From: Taibaiella sp.
GTDB lineage: Bacteria > Bacteroidota > Bacteroidia > Chitinophagales > Chitinophagaceae
Reading direction: 5' to 3'
Assembly (NCBI GenBank): GCA_021740995.1
Contig: JAIOYR010000004.1
Span: 14,495 to 78,494 of the forward strand
DNA: 64,000 nucleotides
The notes under the pieces are model-generated. The model did no database searches and was not told where the DNA came from. It saw nothing but the letters and a program-made list of their open reading frames with translations. Positions 1,134 through 14,002 of the stretch are shown in pieces. The position numbers and the translations under genes are program-made. Each line of letters starts with the position of its first letter. Position 1 is the stretch's first letter.

Positions 1134-2609
1134 TTACTCAGGGCTGAGGGCTGCCAGGTTATTCTGTTCCAGTTGTGCCTGCTCATCCTTGCTTTTCTTG
1201 TCCAGAATAATGAGTAATGCCAGCGGGATATAAAACAAGGCTGCTACTTTATGGGTCTCTATAAGCTCTGAGAAGAAATTGTTGATAAAGCCTACCGCTA
1301 TGGCCATCGCCAGCCCCATGGTGCAGCAGCGGTAAAACTTGTCTTTGAACCTATGGTAAATTTTCTGAGCCTTGTGAAACACCATCACCATAAACACTGC
1401 ATAGAGTATCATAGCTGGCCAGCCCTGCTCTACCAGCATATACAGGAAGTAGTTGTGGGTGGTAGACTGCTCCGTATTGCGGCTCACATAGGTGCGGAAG
1501 GACGTAACCGTATGGGGCTTGTAGTAGTAGTAGAATGTGCGTGGGCCAAAGCCGGTAAGGGGTCTTTCCTTGCTCATGCGCACTGCCGCTATCCACCTAT
1601 ATAGCCGCTCCATAGACGACATGTCTGTGCCTCTGAATGTGGCTATGACATGGTCAGCAAAATCGCGGCGCATATAGGTATGCTCAAAGTCGGGGCGAAA
1701 GGAGATGAACTTATTGTTGGGCACCATATAGGCCATCATCAGTATGATGACTGCATAAAAGCCGGGCATCACCAGGTTCACCAGCTTTATTCTCATGGCT
1801 ATACCTATTACTATGCTGAATACAACCGCCACCACGGCGGCGCGGGCATAAGCAAAACCTATACCGGCAATAAATATCAAGATGACTATGGCAAGTGCAC
1901 TCTTTATGAGAATATTCCGCTTCTTTATCAGTGGCCAGCAGCTCACTATTAACAGCGGAAAGAACATGGAAATAACCGTAGAATAGTCTACGTGGTTGTA
2001 GTAAAGCCGGGTGATGGCTCTTTGTATCTTATGAAATGCAAAGCCATAAGTGGCATGGTGAATAAGGATGACGATAATAGTAGCCAGCATGGGCACCAGC
2101 AGCACAAAGAAGCCCCTTACAAAGTCTTTCTTTTCTGTAAACACCCATATAGGGAATACGAAAAAACAAACAAGCAGCCAGGTTTTTACCAGCAGAAACT
2201 TGAATGAAAAGAACAGCATTTTTGAGAATATCACTGCTACTATGGTCCAGAGAAACTGCAGTACCACTATCAGCACCAGCGGGTCGCGCCACCACCACTC
2301 CGGAATGATCTTAGGGTTGCGGGCTATCATGGCCAGAAACAAACCCAGAAACAGCCACATCATAGGCTGATCGGGCAGGGTAATGGACAATGTTTCTCCG
2401 GCTAAGCCAAGCTGTATGGAGGGCGGTATGGTGAACAGGAATATCCAGTAAGCGGTTTTCCAGTTGACCCCCATAAGCACTATATACAGGTATGCAAGCG
2501 GCACCGCCAGTATGTAGTAATTGCCGGTATAGGCAACCAACATAATAGTGAGGAACAACACCGAAAACGATGCTATGGAAAACCACTTGTTTTGTATGTC
2601 GGCAACCAT
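1134..2609 (-). CDS. O-antigen ligase/polymerase (WaaL/Wzy_C) family membrane protein
   Basis: About 12 TM segments, R-x-x-x-W...P-x-x-GFG, HNYFLYMLVEQG motif. Confidence 0.88.
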   Translation of the reverse strand: MVADIQNKWFSIASFSVLFLTIMLVAYTGNYYILAVPLAYLYIVLMGVNWKTAYWIFLFTIPPSIQLGLAGETLSITLPDQPMMWLFLGLFLAMIARNPKIIPEWWWRDPLVLIVVLQFLWTIVAVIFSKMLFFSFKFLLVKTWLLVCFFVFPIWVFTEKKDFVRGFFVLLVPMLATIIVILIHHATYGFAFHKIQRAITRLYYNHVDYSTVISMFFPLLIVSCWPLIKKRNILIKSALAIVILIFIAGIGFAYARAAVVAVVFSIVIGIAMRIKLVNLVMPGFYAVIILMMAYMVPNNKFISFRPDFEHTYMRRDFADHVIATFRGTDMSSMERLYRWIAAVRMSKERPLTGFGPRTFYYYYKPHTVTSFRTYVSRNTEQSTTHNYFLYMLVEQGWPAMILYAVFMVMVFHKAQKIYHRFKDKFYRCCTMGLAMAIAVGFINNFFSELIETHKVAALFYIPLALLIILDKKSKDEQAQLEQNNLAALSPE

Positions 2610-3578
2610 CTATCTTTCTACAGCATTTAACTTGCGGAAATAAGCCATCATCAGCACATAGAGCGTACTGAAGAAGAAGGATAACAATGCTGCTGCTACA
2701 AGGGTAAGCGTAGTGCCCAGCCCAGCAGGCTGCACCGGCGGCAATGCACGGGTTATCACCTTCAGGAAGTCCATAGCACTGTTTGTGGTAGCATGAAACT
2801 CATTGAGGGCAGATATATAGTGTGCCCTGTCGGCCACCAGTTGGTCTTTGATAGATTCTATATTCTGTATTTCCTCTATAGCTCTGCCATAACCCTTGCC
2901 ACCGCCTTTTACCTCACCTACTATTACGTTTTGGCGGGCAGGGCTTATGATAGAGTATATACCGTACTGATCGCGCATATTGGCCAGGGTATCCGTGAGA
3001 GAGTTGATAGAGCTATCCAGCTTTATCACCTGATCGTTGATAGAGGTGTAGATGCCATTCTTGATGTAGGTATAATACTGGCGGTAGGTTTCCTCCAGCA
3101 CCTTTACCGACATATTGGTAACATTGGCGGCAGTAACGGGGTCGTAGGCTACATAAGAAATCTCCACGTCTTTGTACTCAGTACGTTTGATGTTAAAGTT
3201 CTTTTTGAAGATAGACATCAGCTCGGCATAGCCCTTGGGGTCGTTGATGTCTTTTTTGTAGATGGTCTGAAACTGGCAGTTTCTGATTATGCGGTTTCTT
3301 ACGGTGTCTGAGCCGGCCAGTGCCAGTATCTTATCCACATCATCATCGCCGCCAAAATAGTCTACATAGCGGGTATCTACAGCCCTGAAGAGGGTATTGC
3401 GGTCGCCATAGAGGGGGTTATTTACAAAGAAGCGGGCTTCGGCTTTGAATTTCTTTTGTTTTATAGCCAAAAGTGCTCCTGCAAGCACCACACCTGCCAC
3501 TGTAATAATAAGAATGAAGCGTTTTTGTTTCTGGATTGTCCTGATGATGTCAACAAGGTCAAAAGAGATATTAGTCAT
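2610..3578 (-). CDS. Wzz-like polysaccharide chain-length determinant
   Basis: N- and C-terminal TM helices around a coiled-coil periplasmic region; directly upstream of the ligase-like gene. Confidence 0.75.
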   Translation of the reverse strand: MTNISFDLVDIIRTIQKQKRFILIITVAGVVLAGALLAIKQKKFKAEARFFVNNPLYGDRNTLFRAVDTRYVDYFGGDDDVDKILALAGSDTVRNRIIRNCQFQTIYKKDINDPKGYAELMSIFKKNFNIKRTEYKDVEISYVAYDPVTAANVTNMSVKVLEETYRQYYTYIKNGIYTSINDQVIKLDSSINSLTDTLANMRDQYGIYSIISPARQNVIVGEVKGGGKGYGRAIEEIQNIESIKDQLVADRAHYISALNEFHATTNSAMDFLKVITRALPPVQPAGLGTTLTLVAAALLSFFFSTLYVLMMAYFRKLNAVER

Positions 3579-3692
3579 TATAATAGTTATAACTGTTTAG
3601 ACCGCTTAAAGGTAAGTGTATTTTCAAAAAACGGACAAAACATTTTTTTGTTGTATGTTAGGGTGGGTTTGTTTTGGGGTAAATTCAGCTTC

Positions 3693-3735
3693 GTCACCCT
3701 GACTTGCCTGCGGTAGGCAGGTGTCGGCGAGTGCT
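3693..3735. repeat. Short palindrome (TTGCCTGCGGTAGGCAGG) embedded in a GTCACCCTGA-type REP-like sequence
   Basis: Reverse complement of cctgcctaccgcaggcagg at 24122-24140. Confidence 0.6.
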
Positions 3736-3774
3736 CTACAGAAAAAGCGTAGCGGCGTACCGAGGATTGGAATG

Positions 3775-3906
3775 TTTTTGCGCACTTTTTTGCAGAATTT
3801 TTATTTTTCGATTAACTAATTGATTATTAAGTAGTTGAATCTAAAACGGGGGCTGATTTTTGCGCAAAAGTTGCGCACTTTTACTCGCGTGATTTTTGTA
3901 ATATTT
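3775..3906 (-). repeat. Left copy of a ~130-bp repeat module (two AAAAGTGCGCAA motifs around an AT-rich imperfect palindrome)
   Basis: 3857-3906 is 48/50 identical to the reverse complement of 28795-28844. Confidence 0.85.
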
Positions 3907-4292
3907 GTTACCCCAGCCCTAAAGGGAGGTGTTGCGTGAGCGCAGTACTAATGCATAAATGATGTCAAACTGTTTTTTAAATTAAAATTGAGACATTTCA
4001 AACTGTAGCCATTATAGTATTTAGATTTATAATCATAGTTTTTGGCACAAAGGTGCGATATGGTAACGGTTTCGACAAGACGGGAATCTATGATACTACG
4101 CTTTTCGTACTATCATATACAGCTACGTGTATATCATAAAAATTTCTTGCAGCCATGGGCGTGGCTTTGGGCTGATTTTGACTGTGTTTTGAGATTGGTA
4201 ATATGAAATACCTCTCCAGCCACGTTTCGGGGGGGGGGCAACATTACAAGGTGATGAGTGCGCGCCGTAGAACCCCACCCGATAGCCAGCTC

Positions 4293-4540
4293 GTTGTTCC
4301 TGATGTTAGCGCAGCGCATCAGGAACTGCAAATATGGCCCCGTTCTCCGAACGTCTTCATATTGATGAAGCTAAAAGATAGCATTAGCCCCCTGCTTGGT
4401 GTAGCATAAAAACATTGTTTGGCTTATTATTCTCTTTACTATAGCTTTGGTACAACCACTCAGCAGCAGTGCATCAATTCCGTTCGGAGAACGGCTGCTT
4501 ATAGTTAGTTCCTGATGCCCTTCGGAACATCAGGAACAAC
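4293..4540. mobile_element. REPIN/MITE-like element: two ~60-bp inverted arms, each with two hairpins, around a ~127-bp core
   Basis: Left arm 4293-4353 (gttgttcctgatg..catcaggaac..ccgttctccgaacg) is an imperfect reverse complement of right arm 4481-4540. Confidence 0.75.
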
Positions 4541-4655
4541 AGGTGAATGGCGGTGGTAATGGTTTGAACAAAAGAAAAAGTATGACTGACCATCTTTTAA
4601 AAGTGTTTAATTCTAAATATTGTATAAACATGCAAGGTATGCCTAAACCATAAAA

Positions 4656-5222
4656 ATGTTATTCATGAAGCAAAATTCTATTATTCTCTTGTTTTTATTT
4701 TTTAATGGACTGGTTTCTGCACAAAGCGCAAAAAATATAAAAAAATATTTTGATACAGGCTTATACTCTTTGATCGATTCTGTATATTTAATGGACCAGC
4801 ATAGTCGTTTGTATATACTATATGACGAGATGGATGAGTCTATAATTATGCACAAAAAACATGATAGCTTTTTTACGTATGAAGGTTTCTTATCTTGCTA
4901 TACCTGCAAGGGCAGAGGTTCTAAAGGTTCTACATATTCTGGGTACATTAAGAAAGGGAGGTTTGTAGTATTTATTCAGGACTATTTTAGTGGACGAGAT
5001 TCAGTTTTTGTAGATTTCTCAAAATCAAAACCTTCTATTCAAAAAATAATAAGAAGAGCATATTTTAATGAAAAAGTGCAGGGACCGGATGATGCTGGGA
5101 ACTATATATTTTTAGCAAAAAAATATGCACCAATAACTAAATTTCACTTGCCTTTAGACCGGAAAGATCCGCTGGTATTGGAATACTTTAATATTAGGCG
5201 TATCAAATGGAGAAAAATGTAG
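4656..5222 (+). CDS. Hypothetical exported protein, possible orphan immunity protein
   Basis: 188-aa AT-rich ORF with a signal-peptide-like N-terminus and its own terminator, next to a toxin-like gene. Confidence 0.7.
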   Translation: MLFMKQNSIILLFLFFNGLVSAQSAKNIKKYFDTGLYSLIDSVYLMDQHSRLYILYDEMDESIIMHKKHDSFFTYEGFLSCYTCKGRGSKGSTYSGYIKKGRFVVFIQDYFSGRDSVFVDFSKSKPSIQKIIRRAYFNEKVQGPDDAGNYIFLAKKYAPITKFHLPLDRKDPLVLEYFNIRRIKWRKM

Positions 5223-5289
5223 TGTTTAGCGAACCGAATTAAACATTTCTTTAAATAAGATAGCCCCCCAACACCATAAGTACAATGAT

Positions 5290-5332
5290 AATACCCGCCT
5301 TCGCATACAGTGTGCGAGGGCGGGTTATTTTT
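5290..5332 (+). terminator. Intrinsic terminator
   Basis: acccgccttcgca-tacag-tgtgcgagggcgggt followed by tattttt. Confidence 0.75.
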
Positions 5333-5409
5333 ACTCATTCCCACATTACCCACATTACCACATTGACCCTTTACCCAATCACCCTCTTAACATTTTAACA
5401 CCAATAACT

Positions 5410-7185
5410 ATGCCTCGTTTCTCTGCCTTTTGGCTCACACACTACAAAGAGATAGGTAACTGCTGCATGACAGCACCCCTAAAAAAACTAAAAGTACGCA
5501 ACAATGTGAAGGTAGAAGTGCCCGACAAGTTTCAGTCTTTGCAGTTGGTAATAGACTATATAGATACGGGCTGGATGGACCAGAAACAACTAAAATGGAT
5601 AGGCTGGGATATACAGGGCTGGTATGCATGGACCGACCCCAACGGTATGCTGTACCGTATAAAAGACCTGCAGCGCAATGAGGATGGCAGGGAGTATGAA
5701 AAAGAAGTAGAAGAGATAGTAGCCAGCGGCGACCCACGTACCCACCAGGGCAACCCTACGGCAAAGGAGCTATACACCTTTGAGCGGGATATGCAGCGCA
5801 ACTGCGGCTTCTGCCCCGATGGCAGCGGCGGTGGCACCGATGCCGACCATGAAGGCGACAAAGGAAGCGACACTAAGAAAGAAAACATAGCAGATGATAT
5901 AGACCTGGATAAGCTGATGCAGGGCGATATAACAGACTTTATGCCCGGCGATGATGGTTTGAGCTATGTACCTGAAATGCGGGAGTATGCCCCTATAATA
6001 GACACTACCGAGATAACGGAGACGGGACATATCACAGGTAGTATGGATGATTATACGCCTACAGATGATGGGCAATACATTCCGCAAGGGATAGTGGAGG
6101 ACGTAAATGCAGAATATGGTGGTGGCAAAATAACGGAGACAATAACCCCTGTGCCCTACCTGCCACCTGTAGCCATACCGACAGCAGTACCCACACCACA
6201 GCCCACCCCACAAAGAACAACACCGGTGTGGAGAAGCCCGGTAACGGACACCACAACTGTGGCTACGCCAGCCCAAAGCCCTTTTCAGGAAATACTAAAG
6301 GCTCGTGTAAAATTAGTACCTGAATACGAATGGGGTGGCAGTAATTTACCTCGCCCATATAAGCCCGGGGCGGTGGGTGTTTACAATCCTACACCTACAT
6401 TTCCATCTTTACCAAAGCCGGATAAAGAGCCTATAGATTGTGCAACTTTAATACAATATGCAGAAATGGCAGATGACGTATATGGAGAAAAGCACTACCT
6501 ATCAAAAAAATGGAGCGATGCAGCGAATATGATTCCTGAAAGAGTACAAATTATTCTTAGTAAAAATGCTCATACTGGATTATCTGTTAACCTCTATTTT
6601 CGTACCCTCAGTAATGGAGTTAAGGAATTTGTTTTTGTATTTCGAGGCTCTGAACTTGAATTGAATGATTGGTTAAATAATATACAGCAACCATTTGGGA
6701 AAGCAGAACAGTATAGACTTGCCGCAGAAATAGCCCAGATAATGGAGAATAGAATAAAAATCGAAAACGCTCAACTTGTATTTGTAGGTCATTCCCTTGG
6801 AGGTGGCTTGGCCAGCCTTGCAGCCCTTGTTACTGGTAGACCAGCTACTACATTTAATGCTCCTGGATTATCTACCACTACAATAAGAAACAATGGTGCT
6901 TATGGGAAAACGGCGAGAATAGATGCATATGTAGTAGAAGATGAGATTCTAAACTACTATTTAGAGTCTGTTAACTTAGGAGCAACGGCTAACTTAGGAT
7001 CTGGAGTTAAAAAACATGTGTTGTCTCCGAAGAAACCTGATTTGTTTGATAAAATTCCGCCAGTGACCAGCAAGCTACCATCACACCCCGCCATGATAGC
7101 TTTTAAAGGTGCTGGTGGCTATTTGCGATACCGAAAACATAAAATGGAGGAGGTGTTAAAACTCATCAAAGAGAATTGTTTTTAA
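5410..7185 (+). CDS. Modular protein: unknown N-terminal domain, Pro/Thr-rich linker, C-terminal class-3-lipase-like alpha/beta hydrolase (candidate polymorphic toxin)
   Basis: FVFRGSE, GHSLGGGLA nucleophile elbow, TFNAPG, candidate catalytic Asp (VEDE) and His (KHKM); base composition drops near 6400. Confidence 0.8.
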   Translation: MPRFSAFWLTHYKEIGNCCMTAPLKKLKVRNNVKVEVPDKFQSLQLVIDYIDTGWMDQKQLKWIGWDIQGWYAWTDPNGMLYRIKDLQRNEDGREYEKEVEEIVASGDPRTHQGNPTAKELYTFERDMQRNCGFCPDGSGGGTDADHEGDKGSDTKKENIADDIDLDKLMQGDITDFMPGDDGLSYVPEMREYAPIIDTTEITETGHITGSMDDYTPTDDGQYIPQGIVEDVNAEYGGGKITETITPVPYLPPVAIPTAVPTPQPTPQRTTPVWRSPVTDTTTVATPAQSPFQEILKARVKLVPEYEWGGSNLPRPYKPGAVGVYNPTPTFPSLPKPDKEPIDCATLIQYAEMADDVYGEKHYLSKKWSDAANMIPERVQIILSKNAHTGLSVNLYFRTLSNGVKEFVFVFRGSELELNDWLNNIQQPFGKAEQYRLAAEIAQIMENRIKIENAQLVFVGHSLGGGLASLAALVTGRPATTFNAPGLSTTTIRNNGAYGKTARIDAYVVEDEILNYYLESVNLGATANLGSGVKKHVLSPKKPDLFDKIPPVTSKLPSHPAMIAFKGAGGYLRYRKHKMEEVLKLIKENCF

Positions 7186-7225
7186 TAAATAATTTTTAAT
7201 GCATAATTTTGTAAAAAATCAATGA

Positions 7226-8092
7226 ATGAATAGAAAAGCCCACAAATACATTAAGCTATTTTTTGTATTCAATTTACTTTGCTTTTTGATAAGTTGTAGT
7301 TCATACATCGAAGAGGAAAATCCGTCTTATAAAAATGGAGAAAAATATAAAAAATACAACTACACTTTTGCATTTGGAAGGCACAAAGACAAACTGTTAG
7401 GTTATGACATAGAGCTTTATAAAAATACTGATGCGTGGGGCTTGGCAAAAGCTGTTTTTGAACAAGATACAATAAAAATAAGTGATATCTGCAGGAAGAA
7501 AAGACACCTTTTATTTAATAAAGAGAATAAATGGGGAATGACCCTACTAGCTTGGTCGGTATTTAACAACAGATATTTTTCGGCAAAAATACTTTTGGAA
7601 AACGGAGCTGATCCAAATGCCAAAACAAATACAGGTGACACGCCATTTATTGATGCCGCTTCTAAAGAAACAACAAACTATTTGAAATTATTGTTGAAAC
7701 ACGGAGGCAAAGTCAATCATGTTATAATTATTGACACCATTTGCTGTACACCGTTAAAAATAGCAGCCAGCACTAGTTTTCAAAATTCAAAAATTCTTAT
7801 AGATGCCGGTGCGGATGTGAATTTCTCTTGCGATAGCATAAACACAGCTATTTCTTATGCTGCATTTTCAAATAAAATTGAAACCATAGAGTACTTAATC
7901 GAGAAAAATGCGAATTACAAAAATCCAATTTATAAATTCGACGACAAAGTATTCTATTTACTCGATTTTGTGAAAAACATGGAATTCGAAAACGGCAGCA
8001 GGGAGCAAGAAATAAAAAAGAGAGTACTGAAATTCCTGCGTGAGCATGGGGCTGATAGCAGCAACTATGGGGAGCCAATCTTACCGAAATAA
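7226..8092 (+). CDS. Ankyrin-repeat lipoprotein, candidate cognate immunity protein
   Basis: Lipobox LISC; ankyrin motifs GMTLLAWS..LLENGADPN, GDTPFIDAA, TPLKIAA..LIDAGADVN. Confidence 0.85.
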   Translation: MNRKAHKYIKLFFVFNLLCFLISCSSYIEEENPSYKNGEKYKKYNYTFAFGRHKDKLLGYDIELYKNTDAWGLAKAVFEQDTIKISDICRKKRHLLFNKENKWGMTLLAWSVFNNRYFSAKILLENGADPNAKTNTGDTPFIDAASKETTNYLKLLLKHGGKVNHVIIIDTICCTPLKIAASTSFQNSKILIDAGADVNFSCDSINTAISYAAFSNKIETIEYLIEKNANYKNPIYKFDDKVFYLLDFVKNMEFENGSREQEIKKRVLKFLREHGADSSNYGEPILPK

Positions 8093-8240
8093 AGAAATAG
8101 AATAAAGTATGAGTAAAGATCTTCTCTCGTAGCCGGATTTCCTTTTTCGAGGACATTTAGTTGCTAAACTTATTCAGCTTTCGTACCTTAATGTCGACAG
8201 GCACGGCAGAAAAAGCCGGAGACCCGGCTAGCTCGGATAT

Positions 8241-8978
8241 TCAAGTCAGGCAATTTTCATTGGCATCAAATATTCTTATTCGGTACCCTGACCCATAGAG
8301 GTTTTCTATTCCCAGTGATGGTTCATCTTTCAGTAGCTTACGGATACGGGTGATATACACATCCATACTCTTTGCCGAAAAATAATCATCGTTGCCCCAC
8401 ACTTGTTTTAGCATATCGCTCCTGCTCACATATTTTCCGGCATGGTGCATCAGTTTAGACAATACATCGGCTTCGCGCCGGCTCAGTTTTTTTTCCAAGC
8501 CATTGATGTACAATGTCCGGTTTTGGGTGTTCAACACAGTATTGCCCAGCATTATAGGGTCGGTTTCACTGGTTTGCACAAGGATGTTGCTGCGCTTGAG
8601 TATGACCATTATGCGATAATATAATTCCTTGAAGCTGAAGGGCTTGGTTACATAATCATCTGCGCCTGTTTCAAAACCTCCTATCCTGTCGGCTTCCTGC
8701 ATTCTGGCTGATAAATAAATAAACGGGGTGGCAGGATGCAGCGACTTCAATCTGGCGCCCAGCTTTAAACCATCGATTTCAGGCAGCATAATATCGAGGA
8801 TACAGAGGTCGAAGGTGCCGTTCTGTATTGCGTTCATACCTTCTTTGCCGGTTTTGGCCAGTGTTACTTCTACACCCTTTGCCTGCAGGTTTTCAACAAT
8901 CAGGTATCCCAGATTTACATCGTCTTCTACCAGCAGGATATGAATTTTTTCACGAACATTATTTTCCATAATTTCCAT
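8241..8978 (-). CDS. OmpR/PhoB-family response regulator
   Basis: ILLVEDD, LDIMLPEIDG, GADDYVTKPF, winged-helix C-terminus (SMDVYITRIRK, YGSGY). Start may be 8969. Confidence 0.95.
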   Translation of the reverse strand: MEIMENNVREKIHILLVEDDVNLGYLIVENLQAKGVEVTLAKTGKEGMNAIQNGTFDLCILDIMLPEIDGLKLGARLKSLHPATPFIYLSARMQEADRIGGFETGADDYVTKPFSFKELYYRIMVILKRSNILVQTSETDPIMLGNTVLNTQNRTLYINGLEKKLSRREADVLSKLMHHAGKYVSRSDMLKQVWGNDDYFSAKSMDVYITRIRKLLKDEPSLGIENLYGSGYRIRIFDANENCLT

Positions 8979-10482
8979 TTCTTAACGGTAATCTGATAAA
9001 AAATTTAGAGCCTATGCCCTTTTTGCTCCACACTTCTATGGTGCCCCCATGTGCGGTGATGATACCCTTTACATAACTCAGGCCCAGCCCAAACCCCTTG
9101 GTATTGTGGGTGTCGCCCTCATGAGCCCTGAAAAATTTATCAAAGATATGTTTTTGGGTTTCGCTGCTCATGCCTATACCACTGTCGGCAACGGTGAGCA
9201 ATAGTTCGTTGTTTTTTTCCTCAAGCCGGATAACTATTTCCGGTATGCCTTGCCTGTATTTGATGGCATTGTCCAGCAGATTCACGATGCTGTTGAGCAG
9301 GTGTGTTTCATCGGCATATACTATTGGGTTTGCCGTGCTTTCAAACATTATCTTACCGCCCAGCGAGTCGCACTGAAGCGTATAGGATGCCATTACTGTA
9401 TGAAGCAGCTGTGCCACATCCACCTCTTCCTTGTGCAACAAAAGGGCTCCCTCGTCCATTACTGCCACCTGCAACGAACGTTCTATGTTTTCCCTTAGCC
9501 TGACGGATTCTGCAGAGATGATATTGAATACATTGCTGGTTTTGGGGTCTAGTGATTTGTTGCTGTCCTCCAGGGTCTCCAGGGCAAGGCTTATATTGGC
9601 CATAGGGGTATTGAACTCGTGGGTAAGGTTGTGAATAAAATCAGACTTCATTTTGGATAGCTGATCCTGCCTGAGGTATAAGCGCACAAATCCGTAAAAG
9701 GAAAAGGTAAGCAGCAGCACTACGGCTATGGACAACAGCAACAGATAGTTTGTGAAATAGACAGCAGGTGTATCTGGAAAAACCAGGGCCAACTTGTAAG
9801 GGGACATAAACCGGTTGTCTGTAAACAGGGCTGTACTAAAGGGTGATGACAACAAAGCGCTGCTATCTGCGACCCGGGTGTGGCAGGCAATCTTGTTGTT
9901 TTCAAGGTTGATGATGCCAAAGCCAAAATGGGGGTCTATATGTTCTTTTTCAAGGCTTGTACGTATGAGGGAATCAACAAAAGCCATGTCTAACAATGAG
10001 TCGATTGGTTTTTTGTTCCTGATGACATCGTTTAATCTTGCCCCGTGCAGTGTTTCATAAAATGAGTTTTTTTCGCTTGCATATCCTGTGGTATCTCTTG
10101 AAATAATCGTTGCCCTCATGTGCACATCCAAAGTAAAGGGCATGGATAAGGTCATAGTGTTCATAAAACCAACCTTTTCTTTATCGCGGGTAAAGGCTTC
10201 GTCATAATATATCCCAACGGTATCTGATTTGCCATACCTATTTTCGTGCATCATAAAAAAACGATCGCCCAAATCCACAAAAACCTTTCCGTATAGCTCA
10301 AAACAAAAGCTGTGATTTACCAGTTGTACACTTACGTTATTAAGTGCATTTCCAACCCGGAGTTGTCTTTCCCGGTATTCCGCTTTCGAAGCCTCTAAGA
10401 GCCACATTACCTGTATAACTATCAGTGAAACCAGCATAGTACTGGTCACAGCCATCAACAAGTAAATCCACTTCTTTCGCAT
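8959..10482 (-). CDS. Membrane sensor histidine kinase
   Basis: Two TM helices, H-box THEFNTP, N-box NLLDNAIKY, DSGIG, GFGLGL. Confidence 0.95.
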   Translation of the reverse strand: MRKKWIYLLMAVTSTMLVSLIVIQVMWLLEASKAEYRERQLRVGNALNNVSVQLVNHSFCFELYGKVFVDLGDRFFMMHENRYGKSDTVGIYYDEAFTRDKEKVGFMNTMTLSMPFTLDVHMRATIISRDTTGYASEKNSFYETLHGARLNDVIRNKKPIDSLLDMAFVDSLIRTSLEKEHIDPHFGFGIINLENNKIACHTRVADSSALLSSPFSTALFTDNRFMSPYKLALVFPDTPAVYFTNYLLLLSIAVVLLLTFSFYGFVRLYLRQDQLSKMKSDFIHNLTHEFNTPMANISLALETLEDSNKSLDPKTSNVFNIISAESVRLRENIERSLQVAVMDEGALLLHKEEVDVAQLLHTVMASYTLQCDSLGGKIMFESTANPIVYADETHLLNSIVNLLDNAIKYRQGIPEIVIRLEEKNNELLLTVADSGIGMSSETQKHIFDKFFRAHEGDTHNTKGFGLGLSYVKGIITAHGGTIEVWSKKGIGSKFFIRLPLRNGNYGK

Positions 10483-11946: not shown

Positions 11947-12523
11947 GGGTATAGGGTGAAAGGTGGGGGTTGTCCCGGAAGAGGCAGCCCCTGCTATTTT
12001 GGTGTTTGCCGTTTATAATGCGCATCTGACCACGAAAGTGGCAAAGTGCATTTCTATAGCTGACAGGGCCAGAATTAGCCATGCCTGGTATTTCCTTACC
12101 CGAGCACCGCACATCAGGAGCTGCGAGTAAGTAAGGCCCGTTATAGGATCGGCTTCAAACTGATGCTGCCTAAAGCAGGCTATCCCACTTCTGTCTTCTG
12201 CTCCGTTTTACCGCTTTGTCTGAGAAAGACCAGAAAACTTCCGGGTAATGCCGTCGGATAAATCGCCAAGCCATATATCCCTATGACTGCTGTCGCTTTC
12301 ACCCTGCGGGTCTCAGGCTTTCTCTTGTTTTTGCCGCGGCTGGCAGCACGCTTGCAAAATGCAGAATTTCGGTTTTTTCTGCTTAGGCGCATGAAGTACA
12401 CTTCGGCCTGTCAGAAAGAAGCAATGCTCCCACCTGCACAGTGTATACTTCCATCTTGCTTAAAAATGTTATGCGCTTTAAGACAAAAAAGAACTATTTT
12501 CATAGTACAATAAGCTATAGCGT

Positions 12524-14002
12524 ATGCCTTATTCCCCCAAACACAGCGGCGCAATGGCGCAGGGCACCAGCGGTCAATATGGCGATTTTGAGCTGGTTTT
12601 CCCCTGCTCAAAGGGTGGCTTCTGTTATTATACAGGCGATAATCAGCAAAGAGATACACGCTGGATGAACCAGCTTTGCGAGGGCAAAGGCAACATTACA
12701 GGTATAGCCATGATACAAGGCAACTATGGCACTATGGGCAATCTGGAGGTGGTGGCGGTAAAGGGCAAAGACCTGGTGCACTACTGGCGCGAAGACACAG
12801 GCGAAAGGAAATGGCATGGGCCTTTCCTGATAACCAGCGGTGTGCAGGGTGTACCCTCTATTGTGCAGGCAGGAGCGGGTGTCTTTGCCAATTTTGAGGT
12901 TGTGGTGCCCCGGCGCGGCGGCGGGCTGCTATATTTGCAGCGCGACAACAGCCGCAATGGCGGCTTTGCATGGTCGCAACCACAGCAGTTTGGTGTGGGC
13001 AATATAAGTGGTTGCTCATTGCTTCGGCCAAATGTGGGGAGCCTGAGGGGATCGCTGGAGGTGGTGGCCATACACAGTGGCCATCTGGTACATTACAAGC
13101 GCGAGGCTGGCAGTACGCTGTGGGAATATGCTACCACTTTCGGCAATGGCATCAGTGGTTCGCCTGCATTCATACAGGCATCTGTGGGCAGCAAAACAAT
13201 GTTTGAGATAGTGGCACCCCTCGCATCTGGCGGACTGGTGCACTTCAGGCGGCTACACAATAGCCGCAACTCGCTTTGGACACAGGTTGCCACTTTTGGC
13301 GAGGGAAAGTATTCGGCGGTATCGCTGGTGCAGCACAATGACAGGGAAGGGAAAATGGATGTGGTAGCGGTGAAGAAAAAAGGTGCTGACCACTATATAT
13401 GTGGCCCGGAGCCCGACTACGAGTGGACAGGCCCCTTTGAGTTGCCAAGTCTGGCACGGGTGCGTTTACATGTGAAAGTGTTGTGGACCAGTACACTTTA
13501 TGCTTTAAGTCCGGAAATAGCCGTTTTAATAGCAAGAGATATGTTTTTGAATATTGGCATACACATAGAAGTTCTTTCTATTGAGAACCTCAATTTGCCA
13601 GATCTGATGGTTCTGGACCTTATGACACCGTCGGGTAATTATTGCAAAGAATCCTACGTTTCGGAGGAGATGGAACAACTGTATGAACACCGAAACAATG
13701 TGGGCGACGACGAAATAGTAGCATACTTTGTTGACGCTACTATTCCTGCACTTGGCGGCTGCGCCACATACCCTCGAAACAAACCCGGTTTTGTAGTTTC
13801 AGGCAGCGATTCAGGTTCCGCAATCTCCTATATTATTCTACATGAATTGGGACACGTTTTGGGCCTGAATCACACAAAAAAAACTGATCGCCTGATGAAC
13901 GATGACCTAAATAACGTTAATCTCAATCAGGATGTTATGATATCGGGAATGGAATTGTCAAAAATGCTGAGAAGCCGCTATGTAACCAAACCTTGCTGTT
14001 AA
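12524..14002 (+). CDS. Six-repeat beta-propeller (lectin-like) fused to a metzincin (M10/matrixin-like) zinc protease
   Basis: Six ~46-aa repeats (GDFELVF, GNLEVVA, ANFEVVV, GSLEVVA, TMFEIVA, GKMDVVA); HELGHVLGLNH plus Met-turn RLMN. Confidence 0.82.
   Translation: MPYSPKHSGAMAQGTSGQYGDFELVFPCSKGGFCYYTGDNQQRDTRWMNQLCEGKGNITGIAMIQGNYGTMGNLEVVAVKGKDLVHYWREDTGERKWHGPFLITSGVQGVPSIVQAGAGVFANFEVVVPRRGGGLLYLQRDNSRNGGFAWSQPQQFGVGNISGCSLLRPNVGSLRGSLEVVAIHSGHLVHYKREAGSTLWEYATTFGNGISGSPAFIQASVGSKTMFEIVAPLASGGLVHFRRLHNSRNSLWTQVATFGEGKYSAVSLVQHNDREGKMDVVAVKKKGADHYICGPEPDYEWTGPFELPSLARVRLHVKVLWTSTLYALSPEIAVLIARDMFLNIGIHIEVLSIENLNLPDLMVLDLMTPSGNYCKESYVSEEMEQLYEHRNNVGDDEIVAYFVDATIPALGGCATYPRNKPGFVVSGSDSGSAISYIILHELGHVLGLNHTKKTDRLMNDDLNNVNLNQDVMISGMELSKMLRSRYVTKPCC

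Follow-up and report, generated by a model that had tools for sequence, protein, structure and literature searches.

Polymorphic toxins combine a conserved N-terminal module with a variable toxin tip and a tip-matched immunity protein, a framework reportedly set out by Zhang et al. in 2012, and their trafficking domains include PAAR, MIX, FIX, LXG, Rhs, CdiA and MuF. To our knowledge, Gram-negative interbacterial toxins have nearly always been assigned to a known machine, be it a type VI secretion system (T6SS), contact-dependent inhibition by type V secretion (CDI/T5SS), the type IV or type I secretion systems (T4SS, T1SS) or tailocins. Here we describe a locus at positions 4656–8092 of a 64,000-nucleotide stretch of Taibaiella sp. 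DNA (Chitinophagaceae; contig JAIOYR010000004.1, positions 14,495 to 78,494 of the forward strand), hereafter the window, which encodes a 591-aa protein with a C-terminal lipase domain and, downstream of it, an ankyrin-repeat lipoprotein. The family to which this protein belongs shares with the polymorphic toxins the conserved N-terminal module, the variable tip and the tip-matched immunity protein, together with orphan immunity genes, fragments of cassettes and a change of base composition at the junction. It differs from them in that its N-terminal domain (NTD) matches no known family by sequence or fold, and in that the genomes carrying it lack the secretion systems that the known trafficking domains serve.

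Other described systems resemble these loci in part. Auxiliary T6SS modules, in which vgrG, hcp or PAAR genes are followed by effector-immunity pairs, likewise place a conserved structural gene ahead of exchangeable pairs, and truncated 3' copies of the conserved gene ahead of spare cassettes. However, the conserved gene of the loci described here is unlike VgrG, Hcp and PAAR, has weak fold hits of the aerolysin type, and is not accompanied by sheath or baseplate genes. Bacteriocins of the pesticin, colicin M and lysostaphin type also lack a signal peptide, join a targeting domain to an envelope-degrading enzyme and are paired with an exported immunity protein. On the other hand, neither a receptor nor a TonB box or lysis gene could be identified here, the range of tips is far wider, and there is linkage to a conserved partner gene. 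For the lipase and its immunity protein, the closest described kin are Tle6 and Tli6, as represented by the Enterobacter cloacae Tle-Tli pair (PDB 7UBZ and 9CYS; Jensen et al. 2023 J Bacteriol; Nat Commun 2024, PMC11470151) and by Serratia marcescens Slp. The toxin/immunity pair is of an already known kind, and the delivery module appears to be new.

Three co-directional open reading frames (ORFs) occupy 4656–8092, all on the forward strand. The first (4656–5222) encodes a 188-aa protein with a signal peptide and no Pfam family, the second (5410–7185) encodes the 591-aa toxin, and the third (7226–8092), which starts 40 bp past the toxin stop codon, encodes the 288-aa ankyrin lipoprotein. The toxin consists of the NTD (aa 1–136), a linker and the lipase domain. 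The original prediction had described the ORFs, the GHSLGG motif, the linker and the ankyrin lipoprotein gene 40 bp downstream, all of which we found as described. Its interval also took in 4656–5222, for which it offered no explanation; this ORF is not part of the toxin but the immunity gene of a different, deleted effector. The base composition divides the toxin gene. The G+C content is 0.49–0.51 over 5410–6290, with a G+C content at third codon positions (GC3) of 0.52, and is 0.39, with a GC3 of 0.28, over the remainder of the gene (6291–7185); the ankyrin gene has 0.34 and the 188-aa gene 0.32, against a mean of 0.449 for the 64-kb window (sd 0.043, 900-bp windows). The drop within the toxin gene lies at about 6300–6400, and the AT-rich turn near 6400, which had been judged by eye to last through the ankyrin gene, is therefore borne out by windowed G+C.

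The NTD (5410–5817, forward strand) is a new, well-folded domain heading a polymorphic toxin family. Its consensus reads MPxFSxFWxxHYxxIGNCCMTxPL ... WMxxKxLKWIGWDxxGxxAWxDPxGMxYRxxDLKRNE ... CGFCP, and with six Trp and four Cys residues (C18, C19, C132 and C135) it accounts for the Trp/Cys content that had been remarked on in an unrecognised N-terminus. The AlphaFold2 model of the NTD, built from a 23-sequence alignment, has a predicted local distance difference test score (pLDDT) of 91 and a predicted template modelling score (pTM) of 0.84. The CC (aa 18–19) and CxxC (aa 132–135) motifs are conserved, and divergent members such as P0036 and P0033 keep one Cys per motif, which fits a CC-to-CxxC disulfide better than a four-Cys zinc site. 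The 591-aa protein has no signal peptide, as had been stated, since its N-terminus lacks a hydrophobic segment and its first 20 residues lie inside the fold with pLDDT >90. A cleavable leader of the double-glycine or lipobox type in the first 19 residues was also considered and rejected, because these residues form a strand and a helix embedded in the fold (pLDDT 92–97), are conserved as part of it, and have no hydrophobic core.

Neither sequence nor structure searches connected the NTD with a described family. Residues 1–390 of the toxin returned nothing at E<=1 from Pfam and NCBIfam, and the NTD had no match in PHROGs or PADLOC. Foldseek searches with the NTD model found no fold match in the PDB (best E=3.2) or among the predicted viral proteins of BFVD (best E=1.7). 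The idea that the N-terminal ~130 residues are an undescribed domain of Bacteroidota is thus upheld across Pfam, NCBIfam, the PDB and viral folds, and our literature search found neither the NTD nor the partner system introduced below described. When aa 1–145 were searched with phmmer against 1.84 billion representative proteins, only 35 proteins were recovered, and these 35 representatives define the family. They are nearly all 370–590 aa long, with the match starting within the first ~20 residues except in the two weakest hits. The named carriers are Flavipsychrobacter, Taibaiella or unclassified Chitinophagaceae, and the domain is confined to a few soil and freshwater members of this family: it was found in one of the 401 sampled genomes of the phylum and in one of the 151 sampled genomes of the family, in both cases the window's own genome.

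The NTD is conserved at 44–97% identity across the family, while the C-termini and the downstream genes differ. Among ~40 family members there are at least 12 tip types, so that the question whether homologues of the N-terminus carry different toxin tips, each with its own downstream gene, is answered in the affirmative. The recognised tips are the Tle6 lipase (four members), GH24 lysozyme, SLT, CHAP/Amidase_5, M23 peptidase and DUF6973, and at least six further recurrent tip types are unrecognised, one of them with an HExxH motif. All of the recognisable tips act on the cell envelope, and the genes that follow the NTD genes encode small lipoproteins or exported proteins that differ with the tip: an ankyrin protein with the lipase (in the window and in locus L040), a MORN-like lipoprotein with the tip of locus L002, and a 175-aa lipoprotein with the M23 tip. 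A conserved N-terminus joined to unrelated tips, immunity genes that change with the tip, and orphan modules are thus all present, as in polymorphic toxins generally. In locus L009 (12285–14173), the Taibaiella NTD-M23 effector and its 175-aa lipoprotein are followed by three more genes for lipoproteins or signal-peptide proteins (165, 250 and 214 aa), which may be an array of orphan immunity genes.

The exchange of a tip can be followed at this very site by comparison with L002, a metagenome locus that has the flanks of the window, with thyA, Wzy and Wzz on one side and a response regulator on the other. The NTD of L002 is 97% identical to that of the window, and the codons for aa 1–136 differ by 3 non-synonymous and ~16 synonymous changes, a ratio of ~5:1 in favour of synonymous changes that indicates purifying selection on the NTD. 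The DNA identity between the two loci is ~95% up to 5956. A recombination zone follows at 5957–6290 (forward strand), in which identity to L002 is patchy, the best patch being PVTDTTTVATPAQSPF, and after 6290 there is none until similarity returns at about 8120–8200. What L002 carries in this interval, in the place of the lipase and the ankyrin gene, is an unrelated C-terminus followed by a gene for a 268-aa MORN-like lipoprotein. Similarity breaks off a short way upstream of where G+C falls. The proposal that tip and immunity gene are exchanged as a cassette is thereby seen directly, in L002 at the same chromosomal site. We also compared G443, a genome of the same genus, as a possible empty site, but it is not syntenic this side of Wzz.

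The recombination zone falls in the linker (aa 137–341; 5818–6432, forward strand), an acidic, Pro/Thr-rich segment whose composition marks it as disordered. Its 209 residues from aa 137 to 345 include 28 Pro, 25 Thr, 22 Asp and 20 Gly, with 35 acidic (D+E) and 15 basic (K+R) residues. The patch PVTDTTTVATPAQSPF (aa 277–292; nt 6238–6285, forward strand) is a short linker motif that recurs throughout the family and is present also in other effectors encoded beside the partner protein.

Outside the exchanged interval, L002 shares further features with the window. An intrinsic-terminator-like hairpin (5293–5335, forward strand), with a 15-bp stem and a T-run, separates the orphan gene from the toxin gene and is conserved in L002, as is the ~90-bp leader ahead of the toxin gene, suggesting that the toxin gene is its own transcription unit. 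An insertion of 130 bp (~9790–9920 of that locus) separates the terminator from the toxin gene in L002 and is not in the window, where the corresponding point is 5333/5334; it contains GC-rich hairpins and looks like another small repeat element. Beyond the island, a response regulator/histidine kinase pair is intact in the window (8241–10482), whereas in L002 only an 85-aa C-terminal fragment of the regulator is left (12446–12703), so that the deletions beside the island differ between the two lineages.

The exchanged tip (aa 342–591; 6433–7185, forward strand) reads as a Tle6-type phospholipase domain. It carries GHSLGG at aa 460–465 and matches Pfam Lipase_3 (E=3e-7). As a single sequence, the domain matched the PDB entries 7UBZ_B/9CYS, a 'T6SS lipase effector', with E=8e-13, and a profile of four family members matched 7UBZ_B with E=8e-19. 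The precomputed family of the tip is PF26363 'Phospholipase-like', and a tip-only search found this domain also in Rhs proteins, in one DUF4157 protein and in 'phospholipase' proteins of enterobacteria, which have a different N-domain, PF26362, as is typical of an exchangeable toxin tip. The nearest relatives of the tip are two other NTD proteins, P0004 being one of them, which are 40–44% identical. The structure paper on the E. cloacae Tle, which proposes the name Tle6, describes a Ser341-Glu393-His448 triad (PMC11470151). Ser462 and Glu512 of the window's toxin align with Ser341 and Glu393, and the putative third member is His577, the sole conserved His downstream, which is invariant in three full-length siblings; the Tle alignment stops short of His577.

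The ankyrin gene agrees with this assignment. Its product has the lipobox LISC (Cys24) and ankyrin repeats (Ank_2, E=3e-17), and is 38% identical over the full length to the product of the ankyrin gene that follows the sibling NTD-lipase P0004 in L040. Ankyrin immunity proteins are the rule for the Tle6 family (PMC11470151), and the lipoprotein is presumably the Tli6-type immunity protein of the lipase. The window's pair therefore resembles Tle6/Tli6 in its homologous lipase domain, the GHSLGG nucleophile, the aligned catalytic Glu, the conserved His near the C-terminus and the adjoining ankyrin-repeat lipoprotein, and differs in the absence of a T6SS from the genome and in an N-terminus that is the NTD rather than the enterobacterial PF26362 domain. 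Judged from their sequences, the tip and its immunity protein are ordinary Tle6/Tli6 members. We also considered the locus as a defence system, and rejected this because PADLOC matches only the generic ankyrin repeats.

A further difference concerns the two termini of the lipase domain. The activity of E. cloacae Tle requires a glycation crosslink between Arg180 and Lys461, derived from methylglyoxal, which ties the first helix to the last, and an engineered disulfide can replace this crosslink in vitro (PMC11470151). In the window's toxin, Cys590 stands where Tle has Lys461, 13 residues after the putative catalytic His577 and thus at the same spacing as from His448 to Lys461, and there is an extra Cys344 at the start of the domain; both Cys residues are conserved in the sibling lipases. 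No alignment to Tle was obtained for the domain ends (Cys344/Cys590 versus Arg180/Lys461), including the N-terminal helix. A natural Cys344-Cys590 disulfide may stand in for the glycation crosslink of Tle. Since such a bond could form only outside the reducing cytoplasm, the Tle6 tip would be armed after export. With two conserved Cys residues instead of the glycation crosslink, the tip is a natural test of whether Tle6 enzymes need a covalent tether between their N- and C-terminal ends.

The neighbourhoods of the NTD genes point to a second conserved component. In L002, the genes upstream of the NTD gene encode a 58-aa GerE-type helix-turn-helix protein, a 723-aa protein without a family (5710–7881), a 399-aa GH19 protein and a 188-aa exported protein. 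The 723-aa protein, which we call the partner, is here one gene pair away from the NTD gene. In several loci only ~105 bp separate the partner gene from an NTD gene directly downstream of it, as in L012 (partner 7818–9890, NTD gene at 10001) and L011 (partner 1880–3955, NTD gene at 4059). In L010 the partner gene is split, in L008 and L003 only its 3' third is present, and in the metagenome loci L044, L046 and L050 its C-terminal motif DCFNQNA is encoded ~450 bp upstream of the NTD start. Altogether, 8 of ~15 assessable NTD loci adjoin a partner gene or a 3' piece of one, a tally that comes in part from a degenerate DNA pattern for DCFNQNA, which can miss divergent partner genes. The partner is found in four of the seven NTD genomes versus 4 of 151 background genomes of the family, and is ~70% identical across genomes whose NTDs are only 41–51% identical. 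Two loci at another shared site (CinA, 4HBT, DUF5723, VF530 ... SpoU methylase) differ in this respect: L042 has an NTD-amidase and its immunity gene without the partner, and L027 has GerE, partner, effector and immunity genes, so that one integration hot spot hosts partner and partner-less forms.

The partner family is wider than the NTD family: it comprises at least 114 clusters, drawn from Chitinophagaceae, Saprospiraceae and Galbibacter, and every one is annotated as hypothetical. The usual layout is a small GerE gene (57–73 aa), the partner gene, and pairs of effector-like and small exported genes (L002, L021, L027, L028/29 and L030). Exceptions are L022, where an AraC-type gene replaces GerE, and L023 from Galbibacter, where the partner gene stands alone. 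Several of the effectors in these operons have a shorter N-terminal motif, EWxxAMxxKGxxxxxDxKGxYYxDxLGFxH, which resembles the NTD core WMxxKxLKWIGWDxxGxxAWxDPxGMxYR, and many share an acidic linker in which 'VLDTxKV' is repeated. In L028 (at 16547 and 18729) and in L003 (~7321, corresponding to G402:C2:99854-100597), further effector modules are preceded by 3' pieces of the partner gene. Like the orphan cassettes of CDI and Rhs systems, these fragments suggest that effectors are exchanged through recombination in the 3' end of the partner gene. At the N-terminus of the partner itself is a conserved SCxxKxPF motif; further features are a loop rich in Ser and Thr around a hydrophobic, Gly-rich centre, a helix of 70 residues and a C-terminal tail rich in Cys (YKKVFGxCCDxPQ...). 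Pfam, NCBIfam, PHROGs, PADLOC and a profile search of the PDB gave no match for it. Its AlphaFold2 model has a pLDDT of 66.5, and the top Foldseek matches of this model were all of the aerolysin type (Cry35, Tpp80, Cry78, BinAB, CPE and monalysin), at non-significant E values of 0.03–9 and TM scores of 0.07–0.21.

In the window's genome, the upstream part of this island has been deleted. A three-way DNA alignment revealed a window-specific junction segment of 340 bp (4201–4540) that takes the place of ~3.6 kb, which in L002 encode the GerE regulator, the 723-aa partner and the greater part of the GH19 effector. At the deletion junction lies a palindromic element of 248 bp (4293–4540) that resembles a miniature inverted-repeat transposable element (MITE), with perfect 15-bp terminal inverted repeats, GTTGTTCCTGATGTT; this repeat occurs nowhere else in the window, and diverged partial copies of the element (76–86% identity) are present on contigs C19, C53, C63 and C75 of the same genome. 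It is followed by a 3' remnant of the GH19 effector gene (4541–4652, forward strand), which ends in MTDHLLKVFNSKYCINMQGMPKP before the stop codon and matches the final ~110 nt of the gene for the 399-aa GH19 protein in L002. The 188-aa protein encoded next is ~94% identical (by eye) to the product of the gene after the GH19 effector in L002, and 49% identical to that of a 191-aa gene after the GH19 effector in L028. Given that the same gene follows a GH19 effector in both loci and that the cognate lysozyme/chitinase-type GH19 effector has been deleted here, 4656–5222 is an orphan immunity gene. The lipase/immunity pair has been left intact. A scan of the gene-free stretch 3580–4650 for tRNA and other RNA genes found none. 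The junction segment also contains a G10 homopolymer (4222–4231), and the corresponding region of L002 has a G14 run elsewhere (~5430); such G-runs could be hot spots of slippage or recombination.

Taken as a whole, we consider it probable that the locus encodes an envelope-targeting polymorphic toxin with a Tle6 tip and an ankyrin immunity protein, whose NTD serves delivery through a T6SS-independent, partner-dependent system. The tip would reach the membrane phospholipids of a competitor bacterium from the periplasmic side and attack them there, and the ankyrin lipoprotein would block the lipase in the periplasm of kin, as for Tle/Tli. Tip and immunity gene entered jointly, as one AT-rich cassette, through recombination within the disordered linker (5957–6290). 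The NTD and the short conserved linker motif would form the delivery module, and the delivery system would depend on the 600–720-aa partner, possibly an aerolysin-like pore former. In this genome, deletion of the regulator, the partner and the first (GH19) effector at the MITE-like element has left an orphan immunity gene and a lipase/immunity pair that is stranded but intact. The layout of domains, the diversity of tips, the exchange of the cassette, the homology to Tle6, the lack of a T6SS and the frequent neighbourhood of partner and NTD genes are directly observed parts of this scheme; that the lipase is toxic, that the lipoprotein confers immunity, what the NTD does and whether the partner takes part in delivery are the parts that we infer. 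A more far-reaching and distinctly more tentative proposal is that the operons of GerE, partner and effector-immunity genes constitute a new, self-contained toxin-delivery system of Bacteroidota, present in Chitinophagaceae, in Saprospiraceae and in some Flavobacteriia, which would do without a T6SS, a type IX secretion system (T9SS) signal or a phage-tail machine. The partner could then be a pore-forming translocator or release factor for signal-less, envelope-degrading enzymes, which it might recognise through the NTD core (WMxxKxL...GxxxWxDxxGxxY) and the acidic 'VLDTxKV...NPF' linker motif; a corollary would be that the Cys344-Cys590 disulfide arms the Tle6 tip.

Several points weigh against this scheme. 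The toxicity and immunity that we ascribe to the pair derive from homology. Both the toxin and the partner lack a signal peptide, and no export route was identified. About half of the assessable NTD loci have no nearby partner (the window, L009, L005, L041, L042 and L045), and three NTD genomes, all metagenome-assembled (G000, G401 and G403), have no partner homologue anywhere, so that the NTD may work without the partner, or these copies may be relics. Some partner-operon effectors, those of L022, lack the NTD core, which implies that the NTD is not a universal recognition element. The aerolysin-like reading of the partner, drawn from weak Foldseek hits to a model of only moderate confidence, is a lead only. 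Lastly, the genomes are metagenome-assembled genomes (MAGs), in which secretion genes could be missed, although this is unlikely to explain absences in seven of seven genomes.

That last point bears on whether the protein is an ordinary cargo effector of a T6SS, possibly of subtype iii (T6SSiii), whose secretion genes were missed in incomplete MAGs. Classical T6SS effectors include Tle6 lipases and the majority of the remaining tip types, such as amidases and lysozymes (PMC11470151), and the assembly of the window's genome, 97% complete, consists of 151 contigs. However, TssC (PF05943) and gp25/TssE (PF04965) were absent from all seven NTD genomes (the window's own and six others), a set that includes one with a 1.3-Mb contig; a single gp25 match, in G406 (E=0.009), fell below the family cut-off. 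TssC was also absent from all 151 sampled genomes of the family, and this negative is meaningful because the same search found TssC in 10 of 401 Bacteroidota genomes, with E values from 1e-95 to 1e-126. The suggested co-occurrence with T6SSiii is thereby refuted. Moreover, the original prediction had noted that no VgrG, PAAR, RHS or T9SS C-terminal domain (CTD) is visible in the protein, and we agree: Pfam and NCBIfam scans gave no PAAR, VgrG, Hcp, Rhs or MIX signature, the NTD fold matches none of the loading domains, and, as regards T9SS substrates, the toxin has neither a hydrophobic N-terminus nor a CTD family in the Pfam scan. T6SS delivery of the NTD toxin is very unlikely, the cargo-effector explanation as a whole is highly improbable, and the lack of gp25 makes extracellular contractile injection systems (eCIS) unlikely as well. 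Least credible of the explanations weighed here is an origin from phage, in which the proteins would be lysis or virion-associated enzymes and the NTD would anchor lytic domains to a phage particle or tailocin. The GH24, SLT, CHAP, M23 and GH19 tips are typical of endolysins, but neither a lipase tip nor immunity genes for lipoproteins are in keeping with endolysins, the neighbouring genes are housekeeping rather than phage genes, and the NTD and the partner are absent from 2.9 million IMG/VR viral contigs, in line with the lack of matches in PHROGs and of folds in BFVD.

The main alternative, which we regard as unlikely, is that the toxin is a bacteriocin that spreads by diffusion, as do those of the pesticin, colicin M or lysostaphin type. 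Its NTD would be a receptor-binding or uptake domain for a surface structure or TonB-dependent transporter of the target cell, it would be freed by lysis or in vesicles and cross the outer membrane unaided, and the 700-aa protein would be an independent toxin sharing the island. The absence of both a signal peptide and a secretion machine agrees with this, as do recognisable tips that all act in the periplasm, like pesticin and colicin M. The NTD is Trp-rich, and its only partial fold matches, which are very weak, are to SH3-like beta-meanders; the paired Cys residues (CC...CxxC and Cys344/Cys590) suggest disulfides, fitting an extracellular life. The partner is missing from half of the NTD loci and from three NTD genomes, and it is these many partner-less loci that keep the bacteriocin alternative alive. 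Yet no lysis gene or TonB-box-like element was identified, and the repeated, tight order of partner, ~105 bp and NTD gene, with 3' partner fragments in the cassettes, is hard to explain if the two proteins are unrelated. Of a different kind is the suggestion that the locus is a decaying relic, in which the lipase, having lost partner and regulator, is no longer deployed, and only the immunity genes are under selection against attacking neighbours. This we consider possible, though we lean the other way. The deletion of GerE, partner and GH19 is documented, there is no partner gene elsewhere in the window's genome, and the 188-aa gene is already an orphan; on the other hand, the 591-codon frame is intact, the ~5:1 excess of synonymous changes extends over the NTD, and the terminator and conserved leader suggest that the toxin gene has its own transcription unit. 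Decay would in any case concern the present state of the locus and not its identity, and is compatible with a polymorphic toxin delivered by a partner-dependent system.

The NTD, the lack of a contractile machine and the recurrent operon of GerE, partner and effector genes are not described in the databases or papers that we could search, and there is a substantial chance that the delivery module represents a new system. The full signature of a polymorphic toxin is found here only in genomes without contractile injection systems, and is repeatedly coupled to a protein that the databases leave unnamed. For annotation, the gain is a name and boundaries for a new N-terminal domain and for a protein family with over 100 members so far called 'hypothetical'. 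If the coupling between the NTD toxins and the partner is functional, two culturable carriers of the operon, Flavipsychrobacter stenotrophus (L021) and the Chitinophagaceae strain MMS25-I14 (L022), would give a tractable entry point, and the coupling would represent a new route by which enzymes, folded or unfolded, leave one diderm cell and pass through the outer membrane of another.

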